In this document: positions 4,433 through 59,322 of the stretch, one piece after another
Position numbering within the stretch: the first letter of the stretch is position 1
Layout: each line of letters opens with the position of its first letter
DNA from: Guillardia theta CCMP2712
Lineage: Eukaryota; Protista; Cryptophyta
Assembly: GCF_000315625.1 (NCBI RefSeq)
Contig: NW_005434570.1
Location: 11,413 to 75,412, forward strand
Direction: 5' to 3'
DNA: 64,000 nt
Made by a program: the position numbers and the translations under genes
The notes under the pieces: generated by a model
The model's database searches: none
What the model was told of the DNA's origin: nothing
The model's input: the letters and a program-made list of their open reading frames with translations, nothing else

Positions 4433-5384
4433 GCTCCACATCCTGTTTAGGCCTGCGACCAACTGTCAATCCCAACGCCTCTTGTTTCATCCAGATGGTC
4501 GAAAATGCATATTTGGCCAGCAGTGTTTGTGTAATCATGTTGAAGAAGCGTTTTGGGATTACTATTCATCCTATAAAAGTGAAGGATGCTGATCTGTCTC
4601 TGAAAATGCTTTCTGTTCAGTTCTTTACAAAGATCCTCCTAAACCAGTGTAAAGTGCCAGAAAACTCTCTCACTACCCCACATTCGTCAAAATCATTCGC
4701 AAGAAAGCAGCTTAATGTCAACCATGATTGTTCGGTACGAACATGCTCGATCCTGACCATCTCATGGCTGATTCCATCTTTCGCCACCCCCATCCCCATT
4801 CCCTATCCCCCACTATCTTGTGCCAGCATGCAGCGGCCGCGGCGCTTACAACTACCCCACCCACAAAGCCAAAAGATAATAAGTCTAAAATAACCCGGTA
4901 GTCACCTAAAGGCATTAAGTAGATCGGGCTGACTACCACCCCTCCTTTTGATAGATCACTACCGGTACTCTCTATCCCTCTACAGTATGACCCACATGAT
5001 ACCACCACCGACCCATATCACCCTACCCACCACCTTGTAAAGCTGGGTCATCATTCTGATCCCGTCCTTTAGGCCACCCCGATCAGCAGTCTCTAAGGGT
5101 ACCATTCAGCTTCGATATATTTCGTATATTGCAATAAGTAATTTTGTATATCCTACATACCTGAGTTCACAAGATCTAAACACCCTTGCACCTCACTGTA
5201 ACAACCGGTGAACAAGGCGTACCACCCATACACGAGTGATGGGCATGATCTACCCCCAGGCATGACACCACCCTACCTGGTGGTCACCCCACCTTCCAAA
5301 CTGAGAGGTGTTCACGGGGTACAAAAGAATGAAAAAATGCACCCCACCCCCCTTTCAATGGAATTCAAGCCAGTGGTTCGTCGG

Positions 5385-5975
5385 TCCGGCGACCGTACGG
5401 CCGGGGCGGCACTGCCGCAGTGCCGCACACTGCGGCCCGGGCCGACGGCGGGCCCGGCCGGGGCCGCGGCCGGGCGCGGCCCGTGACTCAGCCAGATCCG
5501 ACGCCGGGGGCAGTCACGCCTGACTCCGCCGGGAGTCCCGGACTCAGGCTCACCCGGGCCCGGCCCGGCCCGGGGAGCCTGTGACGCCGGACGGCGGACG
5601 CCGGTCCTGGACTCGGGACTCCCGGAGCCTCGGACTGGCAGGCTGCCAGTGCTGGGCGGACTCCCGGACCGTGACGCCGGATCGGACGGCGGAACCAGGC
5701 TTTCCGACACCGGCGAGCCGGGCCTCGGTCTCCGAATCGCGGCCGCATCATCATCATCCGGCATCGGATGGCGGCATCATCGGACTGCCTCGGATCCGAT
5801 CGGCGAACCGAATTGAAACCGCCGCTCAGTCCGAGTCCGCCCGGGCCACCCCGGCCCGGCGGCCCCGGGCCGCCGCCGGGGCCCGCCGCGGCGCCGGGCA
5901 AAGCGGCCGGCGGCTGGCCCGGACGACGACAAAGCCAGCCGCTGAGCCAAGTTCAAAATCTGTAGCCACCGGTTC
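5385..5975. other. CCGG-rich intergenic island 1
   Basis: Very GC-rich; dense CCGG/GGCC plus GCCGCAGTG, CGGATCCGATCGG, CATCATCAT, AAGTTCAA words. Confidence 0.8.
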
Positions 5976-8468
5976 GCTTTGGTTTCAGGTACTGGGTGAG
6001 CTGTAAAATAATGGGCCAAGGTAGGGTAGTGACCCACACCCTCCCTGATCTCAGTCGCATGTTGGGTACTTGCGCCGTGACTCACGATCGATCTTGAGAT
6101 TGTTCTATACCTCTGTTTCTTGTTTATTACCGGTAGTTAGTCGCAAGTGTCACGGGTTGATGCCTTGGTTTTTCCCTTATCCTTCTTCTACTATTGTCTC
6201 TTCTAATGAATGCTTGACCTGCATACCAAAGGGCTTCATATGTATTGATTGAGTTCTCACCGAGGGGTAGGGTCTGAACTCTCGGCTCTAACTATAGGAG
6301 CATTTTCTCGCAGTGTGCTTCGAAACTCTGCGGTATCGGAACGCTTGAAAATCTGCCCGGAGATCCGGAGAGCACAAAGCAAAACTGAGTCTAAATTTGA
6401 TGCGCTGTTTAGAAGGAGGAATGTAACAACAGACAGAAGAAGGTCACTCTGTCAGCTTGCCCCTGCACGAGGAAGGAATAGCCTTGATTTCAGTCCACCG
6501 CTGACCAGCCGCATCGCAGAAATAGACGACAATGCATCTCTTGATACTTTCAGTCATGAGGTGCTGATCGAAAAAGAATCGTTTGGGCATCTTGGCGCCC
6601 CGATGACTGTCACGGCCCATCGGAAACCATTTTAAAAAAGGAGACCACCCCCTAAACACCCACATTCTGCAAGGGACCCCTGCAGAGTGGTTGATCGGCA
6701 TGACCTTGTCAAGGCAACCCACGGCGGACAGCTTTCTTATCATGCACCCCTCCTATTACGAGGATTCTTTAGGAAATTGTAGGGTAGTACGTTTCCGATG
6801 GGGGTAGGTAGGTGGAGATCTCGATTTGGATGACTCTATGAACATGTTACATTGTTGTAATTCAAAAACAGATTTAGTAGCCTTGGGTGTAGTCATGGAT
6901 ACGAGAGGTAGGGTCCTGAATGTTCCAGGGGGTAGGCTTTCTTCGTATTGTCCTTGAAATGTACCCAGGCTCAAACGAAGATTCCTGGTAAAAGACTATG
7001 GTGGGGTAGTCTATCAACATCAAGAGACTCATCATGCCTGCACACCACGGGTGGGTGAGTAGATGGAACGGGCTTGAACTTGGGTCCTCTGCAAGTCGAC
7101 TTGGTGATTTTTAACCTTCGTATACCGGGGTGGGTAGGGGACAATCAGGGGTGGAGGTACATGGACAGACCCCCACAGGAACCTGAGTACGTCGTTGATG
7201 GATAGGTAGGGGTAGGTAGTTTTGGAGGGTACCCACGAGGGACTCTGACAACTTGAGAGGAATACACGGGTACCCTCCAACATGTCCGAGGGTTGCAAGT
7301 CCAGGACGACTTTCCCTCCTGTAAAAGAACCGGTGGGGGTAAAATTGTTGTGTCAGGGCTAGGGGTAGCAGCAGCTGTAAAACTTCAGGGTGGGGTGCTT
7401 TCAGCGGGATTTACAAGAACCAGTACAGAGGGTGGGGTAGTAGTTGTTGGGTATTTCTACTAGTACTTTTTGGATTTGACCATCAGTTGACCATCGCGTT
7501 TGGCTGGATTTGGTTGCGGATCCGGGGTTCGATCGAGGACCCCTCACAGAATTTCTCTTTGTGAGTAGGGTAGGGGTACAGTGTGTAGACTTTGGATCCC
7601 TCCGTGGGGTAGGGCTGTTCTTCTCACTCAATGGGTGGTACCTCGATGGGGTGCTCACAACTAGGACGGGTAGCCCAGAGTACCCTTTGATTCCCAGATG
7701 TTTTCAGGGAAACTGACCCATCACATTCTAGAACTGTCATGGAAATATTGACAAGAATGGGGTGGGTCCACACTCAGACTCAGGGCATCAGTGGGGTGCA
7801 AGAGCGGTATGTTGGGGTGCACTGCCCGGCGGGGCACACACACTACACGGTGGAAAAGGGTGGGGTGGTCTTAATTATCTTCTTTTTAAAACCTTTTAGG
7901 GAACATCGTCTCTTTAAGGCCAGTTTGCATCTAAAAACCTGTTTTAATTAAAAATATAGGGTCTTAAAAACATCGACGCCTACCCACCCCGTTCAATTCA
8001 AACAAATCAGCCTTCTCCTGGTACTAATTGAGTACCCCCCACCCCCAAGTGGTTCCCCTACTTCTCCCATATGTTCCCCTCCTTGCAAACCCCCGACATC
8101 ATTGCGTTCTCCTCCTGAAGCTTGCACCCCATCTCCGTCCGCCGCCCCCTCCCCCTCCCCCTCCTCGGCCTCCGCCTTCCATCTTTCCTGCCTCCTTGAA
8201 CCATCACCTGCCTCCACCTCCTCTGATCTCCTCGTGCCTCTCCACTTGCTGCTCTATCCACCTTGCAGCTTGTACTCGTTCTCTTTCCTCTGACTAGTTC
8301 TTCCCTGATCCCCCTCCTCCTGCTTATCCCGGCGTGCCATACCTTTGCCCCCTCTTGATCTGCCTGGGTTCCAAGAATACTGCATTCCGTGCAACTTATA
8401 GCTATCTCGTTCGATAGCGCCGGCTGAATCCCCCATCCGCCTCAGTTACTCACAGAAGAAGGCCCAAT

Positions 8469-9368
8469 ATGTCCACGGACATGATTAGCCTCCATATCCC
8501 CGAAGGCAAGGAGATGGAGGATCTCACCTTGAGGAAACGCCTCTCAAACCTCTGGAGCAGCGGCTCTTTCGAGCTCTCCCGCATGTCTTGCATGCACGGA
8601 AGCGGATCCTTCGACTTCCTCTCGTTGCCCCTGGACGAGGGGTCCTTCCCCGCGGTGACGGATGATCTACAGCACGAAGACGACAAGGACGTGATGGAGC
8701 AGGAGATCTTCGTCGAGAAGCTGTTCTGCCCGTCCCCACCTCTGTTCCCCGAGTCTACCTCCGAGGAGGACAACGATGGGTTCATGGATGATGAGAGCTA
8801 CGCGCAGTCGAGCGTCGAGCTGACGACCGACGACTTGAACCACAACAGCAACAGCCCGTCCGACGAGGACGATGGCGATGTGGAGGTTGACTGCGCAGAC
8901 GATGAGATTATCTCCGCCTTCATCGGCGTCAACGTGAAGCCCAACGCGAGGAGACGCATGCAGGATCTGCAGAGGCTGTTTTGGAAGCTCAACAAGCGGA
9001 AGGTAATCCAGCTGATCTCGCACGAGGAGGTGAATCAGAACTGCGTGCTGGGCTTCTCGGAGATCCTGGTAGATGACCTTGGCGAGTTCAACTCGTCGAT
9101 CAGGAACCTGGTACTCAAGGACGAGTCTCACTGCTGGCTCATGAATGGGCGCGAAAGCATCAAGGAGCCGACATGGCCTGTCTACGAGATCCTGCGACAG
9201 ATCGGCATCAAGCCTGTCAAGGGCATGCGGGGACCCAAGCACGGGGACCCGGGAAAGCGTGATTTCATGTACTACACCAAGTACGAGTTCTGCAGAGAGC
9301 TCATGCTCAAGAACCGCTGCAGGCTGCAAGCAGGGTTCATCGGGAGAGGGCGAAGAAACTATTTCTGA
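8469..9368 (+). CDS. Intronless hypothetical protein, 299 aa: acidic middle, basic globular C-terminal domain (possible transcription factor)
   Basis: Long ORF with strong GC3 codon bias; D/E-rich region followed by a structured-looking domain. Confidence 0.8.
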   Translation: MSTDMISLHIPEGKEMEDLTLRKRLSNLWSSGSFELSRMSCMHGSGSFDFLSLPLDEGSFPAVTDDLQHEDDKDVMEQEIFVEKLFCPSPPLFPESTSEEDNDGFMDDESYAQSSVELTTDDLNHNSNSPSDEDDGDVEVDCADDEIISAFIGVNVKPNARRRMQDLQRLFWKLNKRKVIQLISHEEVNQNCVLGFSEILVDDLGEFNSSIRNLVLKDESHCWLMNGRESIKEPTWPVYEILRQIGIKPVKGMRGPKHGDPGKRDFMYYTKYEFCRELMLKNRCRLQAGFIGRGRRNYF

Positions 9369-9518
9369 AGGATAGAAGTCACATAACCACTATGACATGT
9401 TTGATTACTTTTTTTCTTTTGGCATTCTATGCTCATTAATAAAACAATTGATAGCATCGATGTCATTCGATTCAACACAAACAAATTTTTCCAAACAGCA
9501 TCATCCAACAACTCCTCC

Positions 9519-10096
9519 TCACACCGCCTCCTTTGGAGGCTGCGGTGGCTCGGGAACTGCAACTTCACTCTTGCCCTGCTCCGCAGTTTCTGATGGTGGA
9601 GCTGGAGCGCTCGGCTCTTCGTTCTTGCCGCTGTCGGAATCGTCCTTGTCCTCGTCGTCTGCTTTTCTCTTCTTCCCCTGCCGCTTCTTCGCTGCAGCCT
9701 GTACAGCAGGAGCGGCCAACACCGGCTGTGCTGCGGCTTGACCTCCCAGAGACTGCAAGGTCATGTAGTGCTGCTGCATTTGCCTCTTGTGCGCTTCCAG
9801 CAGGTTGGCGTCTACTTCAGGAGGAGCGAAGTTGGGGATGCCCTGCATCGCCTTCCTCCTCTTGCCTCGCTGAGTCTGCGCGATGTGCTCAGCCTCCTGC
9901 ATCGCCGAGATGGCATTGACAAGCACGTCAAGCTTGTCACTGTTGACACCCTAGAAGGCAGCTGAGGTAAGCGTATGGGAGGGGAGGGGAGGAGGACGAG
10001 GACCTGCTGAGTGCACTTGAGGCAGAGGCGCCTCCACCTTTCCTTCGACTGATGGCCGGGCCTGCCAGGAACGTGCACCTGACAAGTGTGTGAGTA

Positions 10097-10150
<54 letters not shown>

Positions 10151-12126: not shown

Positions 12127-13214
12127 GGTTGTCGTCGACCTGCAGCCAGATATCAAACAGCAGTGACACTGAGGAGCGATGTCCACTCGACGATGCCAAG
12201 CAAAGCAGCTTCTCAGTACAATCTCCACAGCTCGGTCGTTTGCCAAGGAGAGAATTTTGAGAGCAATCGCAGTTTACATGCATCATCACCACAAACCATT
12301 ACATCACAAACTTTTGAGTCAACAACATATCATGCAAGTGCCTGATCAGCCACTGCGTGATTATTCAAATTCAAATTCAAATATGTAGCCGTGGGGTTGT
12401 CTTGCTTCTTATGAAGCATTCAACCTTCAATTCCATGCAGTTCTCGAAACATGCACGACTCATGCACGACTATTCGCAGCAGGGAGCTCTCTCATGCATT
12501 ATTCATGTTATCCTCCCCCCCTCAATCATCTAACACGCCACTTCCTCCCACGTCCAAATTTCTAACAAGGAATGAGCATCAAATGCGAGCAAACCAGCCA
12601 GCAAGGTTCGTAGAGGTCAACATGGCATGGACCGATAGGAGGAGCAGCGAGGGGGAGCTAGCGGGGGTAAGGCAACGCCGAACGAGCATGTCACTTTCTC
12701 CTCCTCCCCCCTCCCCCCTTGCTCTCTATCAGCACACTTCCTCCATGCCCGCCCCTGCATCACAAGGACCCGCCTCGCCGCTCCTCTGTCGGCCCACAGC
12801 GCCCGCCTCTGACTAATTCACAGGGGGGTGGGTCATCAGATACCGGTACTGGACTGAAGAATATTATGATCAAAAGGGGGGTTCGATATCACACACTTTG
12901 GTAATGGTAGGGTGGTGATTCAAATCCCAAAAGCTCTCAGGACCGAGATTAGTTGAGTAGAGTTGGGTTGAGGTGAAGTGGGTGGGGGTACTCAGAAGCT
13001 TATCTGAGACAGTGATCCTGTATCAATTAGAAACTTATTCGAAAAATACTTTAAGATGGATGCATTCATTTCTAGCTTCTGTTGACATCAGGGGTACTCG
13101 TTATTGCAAGGAGGACCTAACCCTGATGAATTGTGGGATTCTGGGGGGTGATGGTACATACCCCTACCATACCATTTTCCCAAATACTAAACAGCAATCG
13201 GGTGGGTGCAGAGG

Positions 13215-14225
13215 TGGCTCTGGCTCGGACCGGCCCCCGGCGTCCGATCGAGTGACCGTCCGACGGTCGGACCGTTTCACTGAGGCCCTGAGCGGCCTCA
13301 CCGTGGCTGTCACTGACTGAGTCAGTCACGGTGCCAGTTCAGTGAGGGCAGACTCGGGCGGCCAGCTGCAACACTCGCTGGCCCTCCGGCGACTCGATCA
13401 CTGGGCCTACTACTAATCAGGCCGCGCGGGCCCGGGCGTGACTCGAGACCGAGTTTAATGCACACAAAACCGTGGCAGAATCATTGAATTGAGGAGCACA
13501 TGAGAGATAGACTGTATGCTAGGATGTGCCAAACCCAAGCCTGGCATCATCCAGACAGTGCCTGAGAGGACCTTAGCAAGACGGCTAGGAAACTTGGAAA
13601 GCCCCCCCTTCGTTGTCCCACACCGTCTACATTGCCGCCGCCTCGCAAACACGTAACGCCGTCGTCTTAGTTTACAGGAGAGTTTTTGTTAACTCGGCGG
13701 CGCTATCTGACTGGCACGGCTGGCATACGCTCCATCAGCAGCAGCCCCCACAGTTGCAGCCAGGCTGCGGCGGAGGCTCAGTCACTTAACTTATCATTGA
13801 ATGAAGGTTTTTTCTGCCGCAGGATCCGCCGGTCAGCCTGGCCGCCGGCCGGCCGCACTCAGTAGAGCTGAGTACAGTGCGGCTAGACTCCGGCGCGATG
13901 ATCCTAGCACTGCGGCAATCATGCGGGCGGCGGCGTGACTGCCGCCGGCCGGGTACTACCCACCGGGCGTACGCCGGTACGCTGGGCCCGCGGAAGTTGA
14001 ACTTCTGAGTGCCCGCAGCCTCGGAGCCCAGCCAGAGGCGGGCGTCAGAAGTCATCAGGGCCCCGGATAGTCTGAGGCTTCCCGGCCGGGCGGCCTGTGC
14101 CGCAGTGCCCGCGGCCCGGCCGCACTGGCGCGGCGGCCTCGGACGGTCCGGCGCCGAGCCCGGGCCGACCGGCAGTCACTGAGTGCCTCCCGGAGCTCGG
14201 ACTGGTCACAGAGTCAGGTGTTTTT
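13215..14225. other. CCGG-rich intergenic island 2
   Basis: Same vocabulary; between divergent Myb and OTU genes. Confidence 0.8.
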
Positions 14226-14829
14226 ACTCAAAGCTCAAGTATTTTGAGTCTGTGACTGATAAAAGTTCAAATTAAAGGGGAAAGTTTGAAGTTGAGGCTA
14301 CACCAAGTCTACCACCACCAGGTGCTCATTGTACCCCTACCCCTTACCAAATCTAAAGCACCCCTTCAAATGTGATCTTTATTACAACCCTCGGTAACCT
14401 GAACCCTACCCTAGTCGTTACAAACCCCTTGAAAATATATGAAAAGTACCCGTGAAAAGGACGTACTACCCCTACGTGGCACCATGCAGTGTTTACAACC
14501 CCTACCCATGTCGAGACGGACTCTACCCCATCGGTCTAATCAACATGTACCCACCCCTGCTTCCAGCTGTTCCTCATACACAGTGCTTCTGTACCCCCCT
14601 GGACATCATTTTATGGTTCGGGTGCGCCCAGTTCTGGCTCAAAATGTCGGGGGAGACAAGGAGGAGAAAGGCAGCTATCGTAGTCTCCCCTTCCTCCCCT
14701 CAGAGAAGTTTCCCGCTCATCCCGCATGCCCCTCGCTCAGTCTCTTGCTCGTGTTCTTGTTCCCTTTTGAAGCCAATCCTGCTGGCTGCTGGCCTGGGAC
14801 TGACTTTGCCATTTTTGCAGGATAGCACG

Positions 14830-16524: not shown

Positions 16525-17610
16525 AATGATAATTTATTTTTGGTGTTGGTGCTGATAGTGATGTTGCATATGACTGTTCTCTATTTTCCATGTTCAAGTT
16601 TGTCCAGCCATGAGAGTCCCTGACTCAGTTTGATGTCAGTACGACGACATGATATCAAAAGTCGGAAAACTTCAGGTGATTTGCTCTCACTTCTCCTCGT
16701 CCTCCTCCTCCACCACCATTACCTCCTCCTCCTCCTCCTCCTCCGATCGCTTGACCGATAGTACTACCGCAGGTGGAGTGCGATGAACTGAAAAAGATGG
16801 GCGTCACTTCCAAGAGGAATCCTGACTGTGTTAACGGAGAGTTTCTCATGCAAACGCTCAAGGGGATCAAGCAGAGCGTCTCTGAGAACGCTCTCGTCCT
16901 GGAGGAGATGGCGTATGCCCAGCGGATCTCCGACCAGTTCGTCGTCCTCTCCTCCCCCAACGACGGAGACTGCTTGTTCCACAGCATCTTCATGAGCATG
17001 GTGGCTCTTCAGGCGCTCAAACAGTCGCGCAGCGCGCTGGGCAAGCCGACTATGTCCTACTCGGAGCTGATGGAGAGGGTGCACAGTCTTTACGGCCCGG
17101 AAGCGATCCTCAACGGCACCTACGAGAACCGACTGCTGGCCGTGCAGACGATGCGGAGCGAGGCGGAGGTGTTCAAGCCCGTGATCGTTGACATCCTCCA
17201 CTGCTGCCTGCAGCCGACCCAGACCGACGTGACGTCGCAGATGATGAGAGAGGAGCTGAGGAGGCGATACGGGACCGAGTTCTTCAGCGAGGAGGGGGAG
17301 CTGGTGGAGGGAGCGAACCTGTCTGCACTGTTCTCCAAGGACGACATCGTGGACGTCTACTGCAGCGTCATGGGAACCCCCGGGGTCTTCGGGGAGAAGG
17401 CGGAGATCTATGCCCTGAGCAAGGCGCTGAAGAAGAAGGTTTACTTGTACTACTACCACGGGGAGCGACTCGACTCTAAGGGGAGCCACCTGCCTGCTGA
17501 AGTTTTCAACCCCAAGGCGTCGGGGAAGGAGATCAATCTCTTGCATTCGGTACCCTCAACCCTCCCTCCCCCTTTCTTCCTGCCATTTCTACCCCGCTAT
17601 ATCCAACTTT

Positions 17611-17670
<60 letters not shown>

Positions 17671-23860: not shown

Positions 23861-24069
23861 TCATCGCGGCGTATCTTCTCTCTCCTTCTCATTATCTCAT
23901 CGGCATCCCTCCTTCCATGCTTCCTTCTCATCATTCCTCCTCCTCCCCTCTCTCCGCCCATGTTGTGCATCGCCAGGGCCTTTGTCTTTCTGGTTCCTGG
24001 TCTGAGCTAAGAATGTGGTTTAGCTCTGAGAAAGCTAAACTACCGGCAGGGCAGTTTCAGTTTCCGAGT

Positions 24070-24250
24070 CACGAGTGACCGGACCGGCCCCGCGGCGGGC
24101 CCGCCGGGCCGGGGGTCTCCGGGGCCTGTCCCCAACTTGAACTTCAAGGCTTGCCGCAGTGCGGCGGCCGGGCCTCAGGCTGCCGGGCTCGGAGAGGCAC
24201 GCCGTTCAATGAGGTCCCGTTCATGCCGCAGTGGACCCTTCCGAACTTAG
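24070..24250. other. CCGG-rich intergenic island 3 (short)
   Basis: CCGG cluster, GCCGCAGTG twice, AACTTGAACTT. Confidence 0.7.
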
Positions 24251-27200
24251 GAACATTCTGTAGGATTTCGCCCAGGAAAAACCAAGGAAAAGAAGCTTTT
24301 TGTCAGTTCTCGATCTCCCAGTACCGGTTATGACTAATGACCCGGTGGTTTTCCCTGAATAAGGGGGTGGTGGTACCTGGATTGTTTGAGAGGGGTCGTT
24401 GAATTAGTTTTTAATACAGCGTGTTTTTGTTCAAATATCTGATAGCTATTTTTGTAGGAGTCAGTTAGACATTTGTATCATTTTCGTTTTATTTATTTTT
24501 ATATATATAAACACATACATGATGTTTACATATTGTTACCAGGAACTTCCAATCCCGTACAGAATGTCACAACATACCGGTACTGCTTACCCCAAAATCT
24601 ATGTGGGGTGGGTGGAAATCGTCCCACCGCATCCAAAGACTTTTACTCAAAGTTTTAAGTCAAAGAGGATTTTATGTTTGGAATGGCATCATTCTACAAC
24701 AGAGCATGAGATTGTGATGATTGAGCAGAGTCTCTCGAGATCCCAAGCATTCTCTTTCTACAAGCAACACTGCATGGCAAGCAAGGATGCGAATTTCACC
24801 GTCAATGGGGCTTTGGCATGTTACATGCCGGGAGCAACACAACACAAGGCGTTGTCGTCATGTGTTTGTCTAGGATAAATCGTATCCTCCTCATGTTTGG
24901 AAAGTTTTGAATAGCCTTGAAGATTTTCCTGCAGATGAGCCGCCCAGTCATATTTACCTTCTCAACCCCTATGAAGCACATTCTGAGGTTTACACAGGAT
25001 TTCTGTCAGAACCTGCAACAGTTAACATGGACACATGCAAACGTATGAAGAAGCATGGACACGTGCAAATGTATGAAGAGGATGTTGCTTCTTCGAAGAT
25101 GGTATGGAAAGACTCGTGACAATGAAGAAAGTTTGGGCCAGGAAAAATTTGAGGAAATTTCCCAAATGCGTTAAGCTTTCCTCATAGCTGCATTGTACCA
25201 TCAATCAGATGTAGGTAGCCTCATTTTAAATGTTCTAGGCAGGTGCGAAGCGGATGTTCTCCTATAAAATTTATGGTCTACGATACTGATTCATGCAACA
25301 CTTGTGATTTTCTGATCGTAATAATCAGATTGTCAGAGTGTGTTTCCATATGTTAGATAACCTCCTCCACTCAATATGGTAGATTGAATTTGAGCTTAAT
25401 GATAGTTTACTAAACCAAAGTTGAGGGTCCTCTCAAATAAAGCTTGGTTTAACATCTCTGCATCTGAGCAGCAAGTGTGCTGCTTTTCGCTGCAAGTCAG
25501 ATGTCAAGCTTTGCATCAACAATAATTTTCTGCGACAGAGCAAGTATTCATTTGAATCCAGGAATATATATGTCAAAATCAAGCCTGCATGCTTTTCTTG
25601 CTGGAATTCTATCTGAAAGTCTCTTGAGAAGCTAGTCATCTCTGCAGAGTATCTGTGAACTCTCCAGCGCGCAGTGTTGTAACAAGGGAAGTGAAACACG
25701 GAGATTATCCGTTTGAATGCTCTCACAACGATCATTGGGCTGCATGCCTTCCAGATATCTGCGATACCTTCTGTGTCATTGTCTCTCTCAACAGCTTCTC
25801 ATCCAATGGTCCGCATCAGCAAAGGACAAGGAGGCAGCAAAATAAAATATTTTGGAGGAAAACTCTCATTGAAAAACTCAAAGCACATGTGTAAGCTTCC
25901 GAATCACACATCCGTCGCAAGCCTTCAAGCACACATGCATGTTGGGCTTCTGATTCACCTGTGTCATTGTCTCTCTCAACTGCTTCTCATCCAATGGTCC
26001 ACATCAGCAGATGGTTTGCATCTATGCCAGCATCAAGGAAGGGTAAAGGACAAGGTGGCAGCAAAATAAAATATTTTTCATTTTGTACTGTTATCGACAT
26101 ATAAAAATTATTCTAGTGAACATTTCAAATCAATTTCGTAAGGTCTCAAATTACCTGGTACATCCGACGGCTCCGAGTCAACAACGGTTGATGTCAGGGT
26201 AGAAATTCATTGGTATGAAAAGACTACTTCCGTCATGCTTTCCCTGCTTTGACACTTGACTGTCACGGAAGAACGGTGGCACTCCGGCGCACACTGCCAC
26301 GTTGCGTCCAACATAGCAGTCGGACGCTGATTCATACCTGAGGTACGGGTGTGCTCCCACTGGAACAGAATGTCGACGCTCCTTTCCGAATAGAGTGACT
26401 GCCTGCACAAACGTATACTCGATTCATCATGTGCTTTGAGATGAAGCGTGTTACCGATTTCGTTTGCCACATTGAAAGCCTTCCCATGAATTGCAGCTAC
26501 TACTTCCTCATCCGCAATCAGAATTCTGTTGCAGAAAAGCTTTCGAAATCGCTCATATTTTTTTCACTTGCAGTGTGTGCCTGATACTCGTGATCACTGG
26601 CAGCACATGATGACCACAAGGCAACCTCACCTGGAGACAGACGCCCACCGCTAGTAGCAGTATGATTAAACCCATAACAGCACAAGTAAATGCCTGTGAT
26701 ATGTCATTCCACTGAAAGATTCCCTACCCCCTCCTCCCCAACTCATACTTACTCAGTGCAGGACATACTTCAGGTGAACGCACGTTGCTATAGACATGCT
26801 TTGGATCCAGCGGTTTCTTACCAGCCTGATCATTTTTCTAGTGAATTACGTAAATCGCAAGGCATCCCCGACAAATTCCATGTGATTGTACAAAAATGCG
26901 CATACGCTTCCGGATCTCGACATCAACTTCCAAGCCAGAATCAAAAAGGTTCTGGCCCAAACAAACATATTCTCTTTCTAGTTTCTGTAGCATAACCTTG
27001 GCGAATACTGAGTTCAAATCGTATGACAGGGGAACCTTTGATCACTTTTGCATCTTGGTTGCAAGACCAATAAAGTTTCAATGCTCGCTTACACTTTGCA
27101 CGCGGCGTCGACCGCAGCTTCGAACCTCTTCAGGTAGCTCAGTGAGAACGGCACTCTCTGCAAGCTTGCATCCCATGAATGCAACAATGCCTGCAAGGGA

Positions 27201-30439: not shown

Positions 30440-30965
30440 TGATCCGATCGGGCTCGGACCCGGTCACCGGGTGATCGGACCAGTGACTCGGCCGTGGCGC
30501 CGCGCCGCAACTTACGAAGTTACTAGCTACAGTGCCGCACCGCGAGCACCATTGCTGCAAGACTGACCAGGTACTATCGCGTCCGCCGACTATGCTGATT
30601 TGGAAGTTCAACGGACCGTGACTCCTAGTGATTCCGGAGTACGGTCCGAAGCTCCGGATAACTCCCGGCCGGGGCCAGCCGCGCGGCCACCCCGGCCCTG
30701 CCATGCATGGGCTGGCATCCGATGAAGCCTAGGCTCGTCGCTCGGACCGTGTTGCCCGCCGGTGGCCGCGACCCGGACTCCCGTCGACTCAGCGGGGCCC
30801 TTACTAAGTTAGGCCCTGACCGTCGGACCATTCGGAAGTTCAATGGCAGTGCCATCATCATGTCGGATCGGATGATGACGGTCACTGAGTCACTGGCCGG
30901 GCCAGGCCTCTTCTCAGTTCGGAGCAGTGCGGCGGGGGCGGCCGCCGCCCGGCTCGGGTCCATGC
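30440..30965. other. CCGG-rich intergenic island 4
   Basis: Same vocabulary; between divergent SRR and RWP-RK genes. Confidence 0.8.
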
Positions 30966-32329: not shown

Positions 32330-32930
32330 TCAGCGGCCTTTACCGTGCGGTCAAGCTGCTCAGTTTGCGAGCCTGAGTGCCGCAGTGCGCACGACGGTGC
32401 GGCTAGGCTACGGCACTGACTCATGTGAAAAAGCACGGCATGGTCCCGGCTAGCGGTTGATCAGCCGCACCGTCATGATGATATGAGTGATGAAGATGAA
32501 AATCATAGGTACTTTAGTAATGATTGAATAAACTCCGAGACACACTGTGACTCAGGCGCGGCTTCTTTCGAGTCGCCGGCGGCCGCGCTGGGCCGCCGGA
32601 AGTTCGAAGTTCCGGGCCCGGGCCCGCCGGCGGATGCCGGGCTGTACCGTCCGGAGTCCACTACTCGGTGCCGCCGGCGGCCCGGCGGCCGCCAGTCACA
32701 GGCTCCGAGTCTCTGAGGCGGTTGGCGGCGGGCGGCGTACTAACGCCGGGACGGTACCGTGCCGCAGTGCCGGAGTGCCGCGAGTCTGCACCACTGAGTC
32801 TGTGCCAGTGTGTGATCGGACGGTGCAAGTACGGTCTGTGCCTGTGCAGACTCCGATGCTCGTGGACACTCAGTGACAAGGCCGCGAGTCTACTAGGCTA
32901 TCATCATGAGTCCGAGTCCGAGTGACTGGC
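32330..32930. other. CCGG-rich intergenic island 5 (resumes at ~35565-35670 after the TIR element)
   Basis: Same vocabulary on both sides of the element. Confidence 0.75.
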
Positions 32931-32931
32931 A

Positions 32932-35564
32932 CCATTCCATGGCATTTTCTAATGCTCGCTTTTGATCATTTTCGAGCGGGGTACCTCAGCCTAGCTAGTA
33001 GGATTTTTGAATGGTCGGCGCACTGAAAATTTGTACCAGAAACTTCGATAATGGTTGAAAGTATGTTTGAATCGGGGACCGTGTCGAGCAGTTTTAGGTT
33101 TACAAGTATTCTTGCTTCCTCCAAACAACAAGGTTTCAAACATTAAAACTATTTTTGACCTTACACGCTTTTACACGCCTGGGGGGTGCATATACAACCA
33201 AATCGCCTGCCCTACCCTTCCCCCATTGCTGCATCCGCACCCGCCGGCGCAGGCGGCGTTTGTTTGAATCCGAGATGGCTCTCAGCCAATGGCTCTTTCA
33301 TCGTATTCAAGCTCCAGGCCATCCAAGGTTGGATCATGTGTGAATGTTTGTACTTTTTGCGACATACTGCAAGACGACGTTTCAAACAGCTCGAGCTTGT
33401 TTTTCAAAGGAAGCTGTAGGAATCAGCATCGCCATGGATTCCAGAGCCTAGGGCTGTTTTCGAATCCTTTTGATGCTCATTGCAAGATGGAGAATTGCTC
33501 GTTTTTGGTGATCAAGCATCCACAACCCTTTTTCGTATGATTGAGCTTCGAGCACATCTCTGACTGTAGAGTTGTTTGGTGTCAAGATTGTTTCTCGTAA
33601 AGGATCTCTCTGATTAGGCAATTGATTGTTGTTTTGGTTGGCATTCTACAAGACCCATACTTCCTCCTGTCTGTGTCAACCAAGCACATAAGCATAAGGC
33701 ATGTCAGTCGTGTAGGCAACTTGATTGCAAATAGATCGCAAGTGTAAGATCGATGAACTATTCAACGCCATGAATGCCGGATGTGAATGGACTTCCCTCA
33801 GGACTTCTCAGTATCAGAACCAGCGAGCTAAGACATAAGGTAGAGTCTCCATTGAATATCATTCCTGCGAATGTAATGTTTTTATCAGTTGTGGGGAAGA
33901 GAAGCATGGAGACAAGCGGGTGCCCAAGCGAATAGGAACATCTTGCGGATGTAGGTTTGGACAAAGACGGCGATGATTCCGAGGTTGTGAAACAGGCAGC
34001 GAAAAGATGCTGAGGTTTTCGGAGTTCATAAACATGGCTTGTGACGAGCATGTCACACGTAAAGCGATGGAAAACAACAAACAAAAATTGTAAAGCAATC
34101 GAAAGCAACGAAAATCAATGGAAAACAACAAACAAAAATTCTTCTCAAAGGTCTCACTCCTTGACTTCAACCACTGATTGAACATCTTTTTGACCTCGGT
34201 CATATCTCGACAAATCCGATTGTACTCCGCCGCTGAACAGAAAGTTGTTTGCGCCATCTTTTCAACGAGTGGTGCCGGGTTTGCAATCGAGAAGTGAGAG
34301 ATTTCACAGAATTTATTATTTTCGATGTCGTCTTCATGAAAAAATATATACCCATGCACTCTGAAATTATCGTGGAGATCATCGTTGGCATGCTCCAACA
34401 TGCAAGGAAAGCTGAAGAAACACATTTTTGGTATAGCATTTATTTCATCCGTATCCTTGTAAATTGATTGATAACAATCACGGTTTCCAACTTTGTTCAA
34501 AATTCTTTTCAGGGCCACACAGTGCACTCAATTAGTTATAATGGTTTCGTCTACATGTTCCAAGAGGACTCCATTGTACATAATGTACACTTCGACAACC
34601 TGTGCATCTGAGTGCAGCGATTTGATCACGCCCAGTCGATTCACTTCAACGCCCCTGTGATCTTCACACTGATATTGAACCCCTGTGCCAGGCTCAAGTA
34701 TGATATTCAAATTAAGCCTGGCTTTTTCCAGTACATCCTGGGCAAGTCTCGATCATCAACTGACGTATGCAGGATCATTCGAAGCTTCAAATCTTCAGGT
34801 GTCTTTGACTCATCACAAGTCTCTTCCTGCTCCAAGAATGTATCGAAATCTTCCTGCCTTCGCCTTCTCTGAATTCCATTTGTTGCTGATACACGACGGT
34901 GAAGATTCATTTGTTTGGTGTCTGTAACTGGAGCGCAAGGGAAAGGGAAGCAACGGGGAGGGAGGGGAGCAGGGGGGAGGGAGGGAGCAGGGAGGAAGTG
35001 AGGGGAGCAGGGGGGGAGGGAGGGAGGGAGAAGAGCATGGATGGAGGAGGGGAGGGATACTTGCAATGGGATCTCAGGATTTTTAATGAAAATTATTTGC
35101 TCTTTGATCGGGGGCAAGGGGACCTGTGTTTCGGTGGCACCCTATAGACATAGGGTAGGTATCCATATAAAACAACCGGTGTAGAAAAAAAAGATTGCCG
35201 TTGCTAGCTGGCATACGACTCCTTGATTTGAAAACAAAAATACTTATTGGCTGGATTTACTACACTCGTCAATGGCTGACACTAATAAGATTTCATGAGC
35301 GTGTATCGAAATACTAGTGATACGAATAACCCTACCCCCTCCATATCAGATAAACATACCGGTACACAGGGTAGAGAGCAGCTAAGAGGCGTGTAAGCCG
35401 GAACTCAAATGCTTAAAACGAATATAAAAGAGTACTGAGTGGTACAAATCATTCTGGTACAAAATTGACTAAAACCTGTGCTCTTATGATCAAATTAACA
35501 GGTACAAGTGTTTGTTAAAAGGATATTAATTTATAATTGGGCATTAGTAAATGCCATGGAATGG
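32932..35564. mobile_element. Putative DNA transposon (TIR element), probably non-autonomous/decayed
   Basis: Left CCATTCCATGGCATTTTCTAATGC (32932-32955) vs reverse complement of 35541-35564 CCATTCCATGGCATTTACTAATGC: 23/24 match; AT-richer interior; no clear TSD. Confidence 0.75.
33859..34909 (-). pseudogene. Disrupted ORF inside the TIR element
   Basis: ORFs 34710-34528 and 34527-33859 are in frame but separated by a TGA; a further upstream piece is frameshifted near 34707. Confidence 0.55.
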
Positions 35565-35976
35565 GCGCGGCTGGCCCGGCCGGGCCGGGCACCGGGCATC
35601 ATATGCGATCACTGCCGATCCATCATGCGCGCCGTCCCCGGCCCGGTCCGGCAAGTTCAACGGGGAACTTAGGACATCCGAGATGCCAGTGCTGCCGCAA
35701 GTATCTTCTTGCCAAGTTGTTTCCTTTTGCATGGAACTTGAACTCAACAAACAGCAAAGGCCTCTCCAACAGTGGCACCCGATCTGTTGTCTAGCCAAAA
35801 GTCTAGCCAAAAGATCTAGCCAGGGAATATCCTGGCTATATCTAGACATCCCAACATAGATGTAGATGTTGGGATGCAATCCGACTCAACGAGCAGCACT
35901 CACCGCCGGTTTGAAAATGGCGGGGTAATTTGTGTTCAAACAATTACCCGGCTTGAGTGACTCATATTTTGGGGAT

Positions 35977-36693: not shown

Positions 36694-37749
36694 GTTCCGC
36701 AGGAAAGACGAATCGGTTTTTGAGCTATCTCTTGTCCAGTCAAGTCCTTTTGATTACAACCACCCTAGTGAATGAGTTGGGGACTATTGATATACCGATG
36801 GAGATGTAGTGGATAGCTGAGAGAAAGGGTTGCAACCAAATTTGTGACAGGCTATTGTGTTTTTGATGGAGAGCAATGTGGATTGTGGTTTTGACACGAG
36901 CAAACAGGCGATCTGTTTGCACGACAACGAAGGTGCGGAGCCAGCGCGTGGATGCCGTACATCTGCCTTTTTAAAACCCTGCTAGTACACCATTTATAAG
37001 TAGTATTTTAATTCGACCTCCACAATAGCGAATCGTTGTCTTTGAACCTGATACACCCTCTTAGAAAACTTTGAACACCCCTTCCAACTCATTATTGATT
37101 GACCCGTCCATATTGACTACCATGGTTCACGGATCTATACCCGTCTATATACATGTAAATTTATTTTGTTTTATACAGTTTAGTATGAGTGGATCTTCGT
37201 TGAGTATGTGCATCTACCGGTACCATCTCCTTCGGACCCAAGGGTCCAAGCTGCTTACACAGGGACAAAATTAAAAAAGATTTATTCTAAACGAAGCCAA
37301 GAAGGTAAATCTATTTTTAAAAGATATGAACAAAAGAGTTTTCCCCTGTCTGTGTCAAACCTGTTACGTAGGTCTCGAAAGCAAGCATGGACCCTTCATG
37401 AACTGAACCCCACTTTTCCACCTCAAAACTACCCTTCCCTCTTGGCAGTCTCCCCAAGTGCGGAGTCTGCCTCCTTGCTGACTATCTCCTCCCTCCACTT
37501 TAACCCCTACTGCCAAGGGATGCTAAAGCTTAAAACAACCAGGTGGTGTCCATGGGCTAGAACCGCGTGACTGTTCATGGGCAAATCGATCTATCTATGC
37601 GTTACAGACGGTTACAAAAACAAGCTCGCCTCATACTCTGAAACTACTGCGAAGAAAGAGATCATGTTCCATCGATTTGATAAATAGCTGTTCTATTTCA
37701 TTGTGACTTGGAATCTATTGATGTATATATTTCAATGAACACAATAAAT

Positions 37750-38774: not shown

Positions 38775-39260
38775 CATGCCAGTGCCCGCTCCGGCCGGCG
38801 GCCGGCGTGGCCGACCATGCCAGACCGTGCCAGCTGCGGCAGTGGCAGGCGCCGGCGCGGGTCCAGTTCCGGGCCACCGTCTCCGCACTGGCTCGGCTGA
38901 GGGCCGGGGCCACCCGGCGGCGGCGGCGGCGGCGGCGACGACGGTCGACCGGACCGGGGGCCACTGCCGTGACGTTGCGGGCGCCGGCCGCCAAGTTGGC
39001 CGGCGGTAAAACCGACGGTTCGCCGGTCCCGGCCCGGCCCCCCGGTGACCGCCGTCTGAAGCAAAGTACGGTCAGTGCCACGGAGTATTCCGAGACGATT
39101 GAGAAGTAAGGCCTTCGGCGGACTCGGGCCGCTGATACCCTACGTTCGGCGTGCGTCAATCACTGACCGTAACGTACCGTACATTATTGAGGCCCGGCCG
39201 GGCTCGCAAGCGGTGAGTACCGTGACTCCCACCGTACGGTACCGTGACAATCTCACAATC
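38775..39260. other. CCGG-rich intergenic island 6
   Basis: Same vocabulary; between divergent RWP-RK 3 and 4. Confidence 0.8.
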
Positions 39261-46648: not shown

Positions 46649-47359
46649 GGCAGGGGAGGCTTTTTTGCTACCTCAGAACCGCCCCCTGCAACCACTCCCC
46701 TCCTTCCCACTATTCCTATCACTCTTCTCCATTCTCCGACCTCTCCCTCTCCCTGTCATCCCTCTCCTCCTCCCTCTTCCTCTCTACAACTGTCTCCTTC
46801 CCTCTTTCCTGCACTCCTTCACTTTCTATCCTCCTGACATCTCCTATCTCGTTTGACCCTGCCCGACTGCTCGCTCTCCTTAGGGAACGACCACCGGTGC
46901 TGATTACTACCCTACCCGGTTCATAAAGCGAGTTTACTATTTTGAGGGCGGGTACTGCATCCGATGCAAACATACGGTACCCCCCTTAATCACCAGAGCA
47001 CTCGAAATTTGTCGGGTACAGCAGGAGCAGTAGCAGGAGCAGGAGCAGGAGCAGGAGCAGTAGCAGTAGCAGGAGCAGTAGCAGGAGCAGGAGCAGGAGC
47101 AGGAGCAGTAGCAGTAGCAGTAGCAGGAGCAGGAGCAGGAGCAAGGCATGAAACCGAGCAGGAGCAGAACGAGCAAGACGCAATTAGATGCCTCTGTTTG
47201 CTCAAGGTTGAACAACAGTTCAAAGTCATGTCAACCTTCTATGTCGACGGCTGCTCCGAGGCTTTATCAACCAAGGAGGCCGAGCATGCAAGACAGGATG
47301 CGAAACGGTTTACTGACAACAATCACTGAGAGTAATTTGGTGTATCTTACAATCATCTG

Positions 47360-50129: not shown

Positions 50130-51276
50130 CCTTGGAGGTGCGGTAAGAGTTAGAATCAAGCTTTCTCACTCACAAACTTGACCGACTGTAAAATCCCACA
50201 TGTCAAACCAGCAGCATCCCAACGATAGCCCGACACTTACCAGCGTACCCTTCGAGCGATCCAGAATCCTTCTTGGCCGCACTTGACCTTCACTCTGGTT
50301 TGGAGCGGAGCAGGGAGTACCAGTTGGTCTTGAGGATCACTCTATCAGTCGGTTCGTCTCATCCTCAAGCTCTTTCCTCGCCATCCCGCGACGCCTTCGC
50401 CGACTCCATCGCTCGATCTCCCGCCATGTCCTTCCGCGGCCGCGGGTGGTCTTGCAGCAGGGGTCCACCCCTACCTTTCGAATTTCAAGATTCTGTACCC
50501 CTGGACTTTTCACCCCTACCCCCCCGAAATAAAGCTTTCTGGAACAAGTTTAGCTATAACAATACCCTACCCCATCGAGACAGTTTAACACCCCCTCCCC
50601 CCCCACCTGGATCTACCCCTTGCTAAACCCCTGGGCTGAAAAGTACCCAGAGCCCCACCCCTACCACTCCCAAAGATAGACTGAACAAGGGGTGGTGACA
50701 CAGGATCCTCGCAAGATGTGTAAACTGAGATGGTGGGCAAGGTCGGTAGCGGGATGGTAGGATGGTACCGCAGAAGAGAAGGATTGGGAATGAGAGGAGA
50801 TGGGAACTTTGACAACAGAAAGATAGGATAGTCTGAGGATAGTTGGCTGACGAGAATGTAGCGCGCGAAAAGACAAGTTTCAATGTTGATATGTCCGAGG
50901 TAGTCTGAGATGCGCAGGGTAGGCAATGAACGTAGAAGAAAGATGTTGAAAACATTCAGAGGTTTCAGAACTTTTCGTTTTATTCATCTGGAACAGATGA
51001 GGGCACGAGATCACGTTATGTAATGAGCATGTCGTACCCGATCACCAGTTAGTGCCGACAATCGTTGACTACAGGCTTCTCCGCATTACTGATGAAATCG
51101 AAGAACTGGACAAACTTTGTGTGTTCCGTTCGTACCGATCGAGATGACTGTAAGCATGCAAATTATGTATGTATGAAGACGAGAAAGCAAGCAAAATATG
51201 TGTGAGTAAACATCATGAACTCGCGCATGATTTGACCTCTTGGCCCTTACTTGAGACTCTCTACCTTCTCTCAGCC

Positions 51277-53120: not shown

Positions 53121-53174
53121 CCCTGTCGTCCCCTGGCTGAACAAGGGCTTTCCGAGTTCCTAACCTCTCTCCAG

Positions 53175-53940
53175 CGGCGGCCCAGCAGCAGCCCAGGATC
53201 CGGCTCACGAGTCAGGGGGTCACCAATGTCAGGGGGTGACTCAGTGACGTGTGACGGCACTGAACGGTGCCACACCGTCAGGGCCGCTCAGCCGCTCCTC
53301 AAGCTCACGGGCACTGAGGCTGCCGCCGCCATGGACTACCGATCCGTGGCATCAAACTTGTCAAGAGGTAATACTTCAAATACTCTACTGAGACAATCTC
53401 GGAGTTTGTGACAGTGGCAGGCTATCGCCCGGCGCCCGGCCCGGGACGGACAACCGTCCGTCACACGGCGGCCGCCGCGGCCCGCGGCGGGCCGGGGGCG
53501 GCCCGGCGCGGCGGGCCGGGGGCGGCCCGGCGGTGGGTGAGCGGCGCGGCAAAGTTTGAACCCGCCGTCCGATCCGACGGTCACTGCCCCCGGCCTTCTT
53601 TCACTCAAAGTCACTAGTACCGTCTATCATTCAATGACTAGTTATTATGCCGGGAGCCAGGCTGGCTGCCCATAAGTAGTAAGTACTTGAACTTGGCTCC
53701 AGTGGCCAGGGGCCGGGCCCGGGCCGGCGGCATGGGTCACCGCGGTTGTTCGAGTCTAAGTTTCAAGTTCTCGAGTCTCGCCGGCAGGCCGCGCTGTCTT
53801 CTGAGTCTGGCACCTTGAGTAACTTTAGCCTAGTAAGAGCCTCCGACTGGGCACTGCGGCAGCCCCGGGGCCGCCGCCCGGCCCGGGGGCGGGCCAGGCC
53901 GCGCCTGTACGGTACCGTGCGGTACAGAGCCGGGCTATAG
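53175..53940. other. CCGG-rich intergenic island 7
   Basis: Same vocabulary; between divergent fucosyltransferase and small-protein genes. Confidence 0.8.
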
Positions 53941-54603
53941 TCTTGTCTTCAGTGTGGGCCTGGCTGGCCCTTTTTTGGAGCCGCCTCCGAGTGTTAACAA
54001 ATCTTCTGCCCTCCTCGATTATAGAGAGATCTTCTGCCCTCCCCTGGGTCATTATCAGTATCTTTACTCATTCTATTTAAAATGGGGTAGGTTTTAAAAA
54101 TCGCTGGTCTTTTTTTAATTACGAAGATCTAAATCGGGCACTGCATAAACTCGAGGTAACTGCATGGAAGTTCGATGGCTGTGCTTGCGGCAACTCCTCC
54201 CTCCTATGCTCGCCCTTCATGCTCATGCTGCGTTCTTATCGATGTATCATGATTATTCGACCATGACTGACTGAAGTTTTTTTCTGTTGTGTATATTTCT
54301 ATTCGGTGTGAGAATACCATTGCCTTTGCTGCTTTCGATTTGTTCGTTGCGCGTTGATTCAATTCCTTGGGGCAGTATCAATGAAAGGAATCTTTCGTCT
54401 TTTTGAATTCTACATATTGTGATGTGATATATTGTGCCATTGTTTCAAGTTTTTCCTGATTGCGTGTGGCGTGGACTAATCTTTTCCCATTTCTTTCCCA
54501 TTCGCCTTGTGTGCATGAGTTGTGTTTATATGTTGCATACAAGAAAGAGGAATATATCATTTCCATGGTATGTAGTTATACCCAGCTGATGTTAATTTTC
54601 CAG

Positions 54604-54886: not shown

Positions 54887-55031
54887 ACTTTTAAAACCTC
54901 TCCGTTTATGCCTGAAATAACAAATGAAAAGTTAAACTGACGATCTCACCCTTCTATTTTACATCTTGTTCTCCGGCAGGGAACCACTCTTCTCTCCCTC
55001 ATCTCATCTCATCTCATCTCATCTCATCTCA

Positions 55032-58000: not shown

Positions 58001-58351
58001 TAGGTCCTGCATCATCCCCGGAACGTACTTGTCGTCGCCATCGGTCAAGCCTCCTCGAAGAGCTCTCAAGCGCAGCATTTCGCCTGCTCTTCGATGCCTC
58101 AGCATCACTGCGAGCTCTAGGGCTCCCAATCCGCGCTCATGCATCCGCCCTGACCTCATACCTCCACACCCACACCTCCTCCACAATCTCGAACCGACAT
58201 CGCCCGGCAACCAGCGGCGCCAGCCTTGCTCCTTGGCTGCTCGCAGCAGCATGGAGACTGGCTTACTGTTCTCTTGAGAGTTGATGACGACATGATCCCC
58301 CACGTGGCAGACCCAAACAAGCAGCGCCAGGGCCCAGCCCCTGCCCGCCAT
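55032..58351 (-). CDS. Signal-peptide protein with right-handed beta-helix (pectin-lyase-like) domain, multi-exon
   Basis: Beta-helix-like repeats VSDCTIGG, GDGVTVSLGARLIMERTSV, GVRAEDKGYVTLKDCLFRDN, LEIRNSTIRG; hydrophobic N-terminus; long exons 57996-57080 and 56130-55032. Confidence 0.7.
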
Positions 58352-59322
58352 TGCGCCCTGTCTTCGTATACGGCAGGTTATGAGCCTGATAGATTTTACA
58401 CAGAAAAAAAACAAGTATTTTAATATAGGTTTTTATATTTCATTTTCGATGTGTAAAATATTCGCCCCCCTCAATCTCATGGGTACCCCCTCTTTCCTGA
58501 TGGTATACCCCCACCTATCACATATGTTGACAATGTCCTTTGAGTCTTTTCAACCCAATGTTAGTGACTACCCACCTTTCGAACGAATCCTGATACCCTA
58601 CCACATAAATACCATGAAAATCAATAGAAAATATGGGTACTACATGGACCCCACCCTCCAAATTGTTTCTAGTCATGTGACCCCGTATTTCTCTATCGGA
58701 GCATGGCTTCCGAACCTTAGGAGGACCCTACCACATGGAAGGAAATGACCACTACCCTTTAATATCCTGTAAAGTACCCGTCATCAGAACCATGGCTTGA
58801 TCAAGGACCCCTCCAGGGACATATTTCGGCAGAGGAGGAATCACCCAAACTACCCCTACCCCCAGCCCGGCCCCGGAAGCCTATGAAAACTCCGAGGTAC
58901 AGCCATATCAGGACCCTCTTCCTCCCTCCTCCCTCCCTCCCTCCCTCTTTTTTTCCCTCCCTCCCTCCCTCCCTCCCTCCCTCCCTCCCTCCCTCCCTCC
59001 CTCCCTTCCCTTTATCGATTTTCCTCCCTCCATCTCAGCTCTCTGCATCTTGTTTCCGCCACTTCATTCGTGCACGCCCGTTTTTCAGCAACTTCTTACA
59101 TCGGCCAGGCTGTCAACGTCGTACGGATTCCAACCTTTCGCAACTATTGCGAGTCCAACTACACTTGTTGACCTCCATATCCACAGTGTGGGAGTGTAAG
59201 ATCCGCTCACGATCGTGGACCGCCGGTGTTGAATCGTCCGTAAGTTCTAGACTGTGTTTCTCGGCCTTGGTTCTTTCACAGGGAAATCAAAACTTCATGC
59301 AATATAGCTGAACTACGAAAAA

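Follow-up and report, generated by a model that had tools for sequence, protein, structure and literature searches.

Zones and islands of the window

The window, a stretch of 64,000 nucleotides (nt) of Guillardia theta CCMP2712 (contig NW_005434570.1, positions 11,413 to 75,412), is a single 64-kb piece of intron-rich eukaryotic DNA on which all counts given here were made. It carries two kinds of unusual non-coding DNA: G/C-run zones (type B; hereafter zones), which are apparently single-copy intergenic stretches where runs of G or C take the place of mixed G/C steps, and CCGG islands (type A; hereafter islands). A segmentation trained on the window itself called 10 zones and 10 islands; a patch at 46880-47000, chosen by eye, brings the zones to 11. 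Every zone and island listed is unstranded (.):

4847..5381 (.): type B zone, C-rich on the + strand, adjoins an island, one TACCGGTA at 4960
5382..5948 (.): type A island, C/G-centred odd palindromes whose longest arm measures 10 nt (centre 5416)
5949..6069 (.): short type B zone on the island's right flank, found by segmentation
6631..8061 (.): longest type B zone, G-rich on the + strand until ~7950, C-rich after
6945..7691 (.): part of the longest zone aligned with the orthologue from run X20
12810..13217 (.): type B zone, G-rich on the + strand, adjoins an island, TACCGGTA at 12841
13218..13454 (.): type A island, nested chain of C/G-centred palindromes at 13254-13275
13693..14217 (.): type A island, from the segmentation
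14218..14624 (.): type B zone, GGGT/ACCC motifs oriented alike in 15 of 16 cases
24037..24233 (.): type A island, from the segmentation
24234..24684 (.): type B zone, TACCGGTA at 24575
30442..30961 (.): type A island, no adjoining type B zone
32331..32932 (.): type A island flanked by genes that seem to converge, unaccompanied by a type B zone
35065..35565 (.): weak type B zone that has the motifs, GpC observed-to-expected ratio (O/E) 0.97, TACCGGTA at 35357
35566..35697 (.): type A island, from the segmentation
36967..37434 (.): type B zone, C-rich on the + strand, TACCGGTA at 37215
38775..39248 (.): type A island, from the segmentation
46880..47000 (.): short B-like patch, seen by eye outside the segmentation calls
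50461..50769 (.): type B zone, C-rich on the + strand
53174..53970 (.): type A island, from the segmentation
58386..58916 (.): type B zone, C-rich on the + strand, between divergent open reading frames (ORFs)
59841..60385 (.): type A island, from the segmentation

The original prediction, made from the letters of the window, placed the zones mostly 5' of genes and often beside the islands, and each half holds in part. ORF orientation agrees with a position at gene 5' ends, and RNA does so for the first three zones only (zone 6631-8061 lies upstream of the transcribed ORF 8469-9368); several divergent gene pairs, however, have an island and no zone. Six of the 11 zones adjoin an island directly and five do not. 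None of the listed runs is recorded as RNA, bisulfite or nanopore data; reads of X21 bunch near gene ends and X15 is shallow, so that missing read cover over zones is uninformative; a heuristic that oriented genes by intron signals was discarded as too noisy. ORF 8469-9368 shares one 90% cluster with a Hanusia phi protein and has a paralogue in Guillardia theta CCMP2712. At 1465-1500, directly upstream of a gene, lies a 35-base island with type A words that falls under the segmentation threshold. Over 8.5 kb, the differences between the window and the DNA run nearest to it are a 2-base insertion and a single substitution (window 1518 and 6172).

Composition was compared with that of 19 hand-picked non-coding stretches of the same G+C content as the zones (46%). 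All eight zones described as poor in GpC are so: O/E is 0.35-0.61 (pooled 0.41, 92 GpC) against 1.01 in the controls (Mann-Whitney p=2e-5). The five hand counts offered in the original prediction (5, 6, 7, 17 and 8) were exact, but the exon line chosen there for comparison has some 63% more G+C context and is no matched control. Contrary to what had been claimed, the depletion is not specific to GpC, since CpG is as low (99 counted; O/E 0.44 against 0.79 in controls, p=2e-5), although the drop relative to controls is larger for GpC. CC/GG steps are raised (1.55; controls 0.98) and the four steps between strong bases (G or C), taken together, are undepleted (0.99); thus, the GpC and CpG that were lost became CC/GG and not GT/AC. 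Strong and weak bases follow one another at random (1.00 at distance 1), and paired strong bases are identical in 78% of cases at distance 1, in 63% at distance 2 and in 52-58% farther apart. Because this identity fades by distance 3, it reflects a neighbour effect, and strand skew of whole blocks was rejected as its cause. The G/C bias remains when motifs are masked (0.71; controls 0.51) and when all runs of at least 3 are masked (0.61; controls 0.40); with runs collapsed, GpC stands at 0.60 (rest of the window 0.92) and CpG at 0.64 (rest 0.70). Scored with a model built from the remaining seven, each of the eight zones gains +19 to +99 nats. Among 211 tiles of the window, seven have a GpC O/E below 0.5 (one is a tandem repeat at 22801) and seven have at least four TACCC/GGGTA, against 0-2 and 0-1 in 20 order-2 Markov simulations. 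In the non-coding controls CpG is scarcer than GpC, which is not the case for zones and islands; perhaps CpG methylation affects gene regions and spares zones and islands. Canonical G-quadruplex motifs are not enriched in zones (zones 3, islands 3, coding controls 2), and clusters of them were rejected as the identity of the zones on these counts. A dispersed repeat or an RNA gene was likewise rejected: only short island-island matches were found, and Rfam gave 0 matches.

The original prediction attributed the zones to a GpC methyltransferase that marks promoter DNA whose methylated C then deaminates, or to a process like repeat-induced point mutation (RIP). A GpC methyltransferase, M.CviPI, would lower GpC, and fungal RIP would raise TpA. 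In agreement with such a cause, GpC drops more than CpG, also after run collapse; AC/GT (O/E 1.10) and TA are raised; GCA is the most depleted 3-mer; and TpA/ApT, an index of RIP type, is shifted in the RIP direction (1.05; controls 0.64). Moreover, the base 5' of CCGG is most often A in zones (23 of 36) and G in islands (116 of 272). Against these stand the equal scarcity of CpG, the undepleted strong-strong class and a gain of GGT (~18/kb) three times the loss of GGC (~6/kb). The zones also appear to be single-copy, unlike the targets of RIP: within the window they are not copies of each other, and same-strain read depth is flat over most of 6631-8061. Their mutual dissimilarity had been noted correctly, no zone-zone pair being among the 40 best blastn matches of zones and islands. 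A different proposal, in which slippage lets the zones drift as low-complexity DNA free of constraint and their odd substitution spectrum (see below) is an alignment artefact, agrees poorly with the composition. Run expansion would cluster strong bases, yet their order is random; AA/TT is unraised (1.05); nearby direct 10-mer repeats are not commoner within zones than between them (8.2 vs 7.0 per million pairs); and the matched non-coding controls do not have the pattern.

TACCC/GGGTA and GTAC are as abundant in the zones as had been stated (56 against 4.8 and 70 against 22.5 expected). The base that follows a run of at least three G is T in 160 of 210 cases, against 41 of 129 in controls, and the next is a purine in 120 of these 160. 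The resulting GGG(G)TR motif is oriented, adjacent pairs pointing the same way in 110 of 152 cases (p=3e-8). The palindrome TACCGGTA occurs six times in the window (4960, 6128, 12841, 24575, 35357 and 37215), one copy in each of five zones, and 11 of the 15 copies of ACCGGT lie in zones, which span 8% of the window. GGG(G)TR and TACCGGTA are candidate protein-binding sites, although we think this unlikely on present evidence; they are the first candidate promoter elements for this alga. The zones could then be promoter regions under selection, in which a general DNA-binding factor would occupy these sites, stiff G-runs would exclude nucleosomes and the loss of GpC and CpG would be a by-product. 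The orientation of GGG(G)TR with its bias to T and then purine, the single TACCGGTA in each of five zones, the concentration of ACCGGT and the position at gene 5' ends by ORF orientation all argue for selection. The G/C bias that remains when motifs are masked argues the other way. Telomere-like repeats were rejected: TTTAGGG, given in the available part of one paper as the possibly ancestral telomere repeat in cryptomonads (PMC3622300), occurs once in the eight zones, and GGGTT is the rarest GGGTN (13, against 56 GGGTA).

The rest of the window holds three short RWP-RK-like genes, 31742-32143 (+), 37750-38070 (-) and 40352-40586 (+), the second recognised by Pfam (E 6e-9) and the other two by a similar translated motif. 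Other Pfam matches are an OTU-like protease (16797-17915, +), a PALP enzyme (29318-29713, -) and a fucosyltransferase-like domain (51277-52503, -). Two A+T-richer blocks, 24700-27250 and 33300-38300 (37-47% G+C), contain short ORFs as well as local duplications of small size (near 25760/25950 and 35700/36340); they may be decayed or recently acquired genes.

Odd palindromes of the islands

All enriched words of the islands have one form: an arm, a central C or G and the reverse complement of the arm. Palindromes centred on C or G with arms of at least 2, 3, 4 and 5 nt number 765, 296, 112 and 44 in the islands, whereas dinucleotide shuffles lead one to expect 249, 72, 21 and 6.3; the excess is 3-7-fold, and order-3 Markov nulls are also exceeded. 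Palindromes centred on A or T number 124 against 123 at arm 2 and 16 against 8.6 at arm 4. All 16 five-mers of the C/G-centred form are enriched 2-12-fold, and in each of the 10 islands palindrome centres make up 19-29% of the strong bases. A simulation with one rule, reflection around C or G, reproduces the island profiles with r=0.82 for 3-mers, 0.73 for 4-mers and 0.55 for 5-mers. There is about one excess palindrome per 9 nt in the islands, of which the 64 kb hold 10, and outside the islands the rest of the window has no excess of odd palindromes. The islands are not copies of one repeat, the best matches between them extending over at most 93 nt at 76%. The idea that the zones are decayed islands was rejected, since no leftover odd-palindrome signal is seen in them. 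Island words are also found in other contigs (loose ends) of the same-strain run. The C/G-centred palindromes are the most specific signal in the window, and their statistic is simple and can be applied to any genome to gauge the reach of the process.

Palindromes centred on one base are also left by cut-and-paste transposition, and zones and islands together might be scars of repeated hairpin-ended double-strand breaks, cut by a transposase of hAT-like or MULE-like type or by a domesticated relative. The islands would then be accumulated P-nucleotides, and the zones would be flanks mutated during repair. According to the available parts of the respective papers, the footprint that Ac/Ds leaves is a palindrome around a single base (PMC5873905), flank hairpins are formed by the transposases of MULE, hAT and Transib elements (PMC5499845), and yeast mutation clusters associated with breaks contain many REV1-dependent C->G changes (PMC3628087); moreover, six of the 11 zones adjoin islands. 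However, a footprint takes its centre from the flanking base and is not confined to C or G there, whereas A/T centres in the islands show no excess at short arms. The density of about one excess palindrome per 9 nt would demand very many events, and neither terminal repeats nor a transposase was seen in the window (22 of its 97 ORFs scanned). The G/C skew around the islands is, furthermore, opposite in sign at 5382 and at 13218-14217. We regard this origin as improbable.

Divergence from a wild relative and simulated mutation

Run X20, a freshwater metagenome per its listing, provided contigs of a wild relative; in seven gene-region pieces, which together span 3309 nt, it shows 125 differences from the window (2-7.5%). 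The zone core 6945-7691 aligns at 80% likeness, with 99 substitutions and 14 gaps in 745 nt (~13%), and a 30-letter loose end of the relative's zone carries GGGTAC and GGGGGTAG words too. Fifteen of the 16 listed coding differences are synonymous, or ~0.12 per synonymous site (15 of ~124 sites); the 13% divergence of the zone is close to this rate and is thus roughly neutral. A further idea, that the zones mutate unusually fast or that the relative lacks them (there is no cover at 85%), was rejected on the same grounds, their alignment at 80% and their nearly synonymous divergence. Divergence is even over the four bases (11-14%) despite 107 of 236 G lying in runs, and at least three of eight listed deletions (7230, 7365 and 7391) strike GGGT motifs, both of which count against selection on the motifs. 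Gaps are 2.6-fold more frequent in the zone, with 14 over 745 nt, than in gene regions, with 24 over 3309 nt (p=0.006).

Subtraction of 35 edge rows from 129 counted changes leaves 94 for the core, of which only five are listed with a position; subtraction of the same 35 from 305 leaves 270 for the background, which includes stray short matches and ~28 changes from 6175-6399. The core has 40 transitions, 21 C<->G, 13 A<->T and 20 other changes, and the background 175, 16, 22 and 57. C<->G thus accounts for 22% of changes in the core against 6% in the background (p=3e-5; one zone and one relative), and the excess is also seen against listed non-coding and four-fold sites (21 of 94 against 1 of 39, p=0.004). 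Transitions are 43% of core changes and transversions 57%. Seven of the 28 listed background transitions touch CpG (window 8940-9773 and 4195-4364). In the edge piece 6441-6735, half of which lies outside the zone, 18 of the 34 gaps between listed differences are at most 3 nt, against 10.4 expected (p=0.0008). At 6645-6695, a cluster of 11 changes coincides with a near-perfect palindrome with 10-base arms in the window copy, seen by eye, that the relative does not have, as a template switch might leave. Purifying selection cannot raise C<->G above the mutation rate, and selection leaves the island palindromes unexplained; as a full account of the zones, we consider it unlikely, though less so than the other alternatives.

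The substitution spectrum against a related strain had been put forward as a check on GpC-directed change. GpC is touched by 4 of the 35 listed edge differences against 7.6 expected, and by one of the five listed core differences, so that the predicted excess did not appear; in the three GpC-touching differences inside the zone, the relative holds GpC in all three, as GpC loss in the window would have it. Simulations of deamination at GpC, or at GpC and CpG, tuned to the observed depletion gave CC/GG of 1.14-1.25, a strong-strong O/E of 0.85-0.89 and AC/GT of 1.33-1.35, and predicted 75% transitions (observed 43%, p<1e-5) and 4-7% C<->G (observed 22%). Since they miss CC/GG, the class O/E and the spectrum, the mechanism of methylation and deamination fails, and with it the suggestion that GC->GT/AC was the main change. 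The GC->CC/GG changes also invoked in the original prediction are borne out by the CC/GG O/E and by the C<->G excess in the orthologue. A simulation with swaps only (C<->G at GC or CG) gave CC/GG of 1.49, a class O/E of 0.99 and 26% C<->G. For 3-mers, the fit rose from r=0.63 (GpC deamination) and 0.74 (GpC and CpG deamination) to 0.80 (swaps) and 0.85 (swaps with some GC->GT), and a minor component of GC->GT deamination alongside the swaps is possible under these models. GpC methylation or a RIP-like process as the main cause is, therefore, very improbable, and this result takes away the chief argument for GpC methylation in the nucleus of this alga.

Slippage and artefact draw support from the neutral-like divergence, from the gap frequency and from a misalignment mixture, which absorbs much of the transition deficit; with the composition against them, we hold them to be quite improbable, slightly more so than hairpin-ended breaks. 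Further loci from metagenomes added little. One of 23 candidates related by ORF 8469-9368 (35% over 62 residues) has neither zones nor islands and was taken as chance. A 16-base G-run motif led to 22 loci on viral contigs, none at the palindrome density of the islands (at most 7 per 300 nt against 10-28 in island tiles), which is uninformative; the best zone score among them was 21.0 (L005), the others reaching at most 14.4. In the viral contig L015 (1-6016, from a 316-kb contig), GpC O/E is 0.25, and in L011 and L012, GpC and CpG are both near 0.6 over the whole locus.

A possible role of error-prone copying, and known systems

Within the window, both the palindrome rule and the facts of composition are well established, and the general idea of a local mutational scar that the original prediction contained is supported. 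We tentatively favour, at a little short of even confidence, the reading that the zones are marks of repeated local error-prone translesion copying of the REV1/polymerase zeta (Pol zeta) kind. A deoxycytidine monophosphate (dCMP) transferase would insert C at a stalled or damaged template position. If extended in register, the inserted C would give C:G->G:C, and a preference for C beside G would turn GC and CG into GG or CC; excision of a modified C in GpC and CpG is one possible source of this preference. Alternatively, the terminal C would pair with the G found at that position on the other strand, be extended and then be realigned; this strand switch would produce the unit of which the islands are built, an odd palindrome with C or G at its centre. 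In yeast, as far as the available text goes, GC->CG transversions are abundant in Pol zeta/Rev1 mutagenesis, with complex changes within 6 nt, and Rev1 inserts C before copying switches strands (PMC3874155). C->G changes at abasic sites are due to REV1 as well (PMC3628087), and promoters are among the targets of deaminases (PMC4359381). The step from strand switch to palindrome is our own extension beyond the work cited.

Several observations weigh against error-prone copying as the origin of the zones. The zones have no odd-palindrome excess (0.95-1.0) and five of the 11 touch no island, so that the link between zones and islands is one that we infer. Zone divergence is not above synonymous divergence (p=0.78), and the stretch 6175-6630, of normal composition, is as diverged as the zone, which leaves hypermutability of the zones unsupported. 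Under the misalignment mixture, much of the transition deficit is accounted for and the C<->G excess is a modest residual (21 against 13.5 expected, p=0.03), and the spectrum comes from one zone in one unpolarised comparison with metagenome contigs, with no outgroup. Swaps alone give too many transitions (53% against 43%, p=0.02). GGGT reaches 15.6/kb, at most 9.9 in any simulation, a shortfall of the mutation models that also counts for selection, and the oriented GGG(G)TR requires an extra cause; motif density, orientation and TACCGGTA indicate a further layer, possibly one under selection. The yeast model, finally, requires a hairpin and a mutant replicative polymerase and, in the available text, has no single-base pairing with the opposite strand (PMC3874155).

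A wider form of the same reading, which we consider doubtful, is that one process of C insertion and strand switching writes much of the intergenic DNA, a genome-wide, position-targeted mutator that would have become the source of promoter sequence: in-register events would convert GpC and CpG into G-runs, and islands of C/G-centred palindromes would arise about every 6 kb through strand switching. If error-prone copying did produce the zones, a copying route known from yeast reporter assays leaves fixed marks at the kilobase scale throughout a eukaryotic genome and shapes promoter regions. The literature search, whose scope lay outside the genome paper, its supplements and most subscription papers, returned no description of such zones or islands, nor of GpC methylation in cryptophytes; the main texts of PMC12695648, PMC12344493 and PMC11244446 do not contain 'GpC', and those of the first two do not contain 'Guillardia'.

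Among known systems, M.CviPI and fungal RIP give transitions, and RIP needs repeats; neither yields a gain of CC/GG or an excess of C<->G, and the zone core, with its majority of transversions, departs from the C->T transitions that alone would mark RIP. Footprints of hAT elements (Ac/Ds) share with the islands, and not with the zones, odd palindromes centred on one base with arms of a few nucleotides, but the available description has one per excision with any centre (PMC5873905), whereas the islands are dense nested chains centred on C or G, with no element ends. Hydroxymethylcytosine is a modified cytosine that can give C->G instead of C->T; the effect in the part of that study available is 1.2-1.4-fold at mammalian sites (PMC4161303), against ~4-fold here, at both GpC and CpG. 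Clusters made by deaminase, UNG and REV1 (PMC3628087) and promoter-focused deamination (PMC4359381) are alike in being rich in C->G and in targeting promoters. As described in the available parts of both papers, they are strand-coordinated, affect C:G pairs only and need an introduced deaminase; in the window, by contrast, differences fall on A and T as frequently as on G and C, and strand correlation extends over short distances only. Closest is yeast Pol zeta/Rev1 mutagenesis, in which, as in the window, the share of GC->CG is high (here in one zone only), changes are complex within a few bases (here in the edge piece 6441-6735), and C insertion is combined with a strand switch, as proposed here (PMC3874155). 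In the available account, however, the yeast events are rare reporter mutations at hairpin bases in a mutant of polymerase delta, and not fixed zones or islands (PMC3874155).

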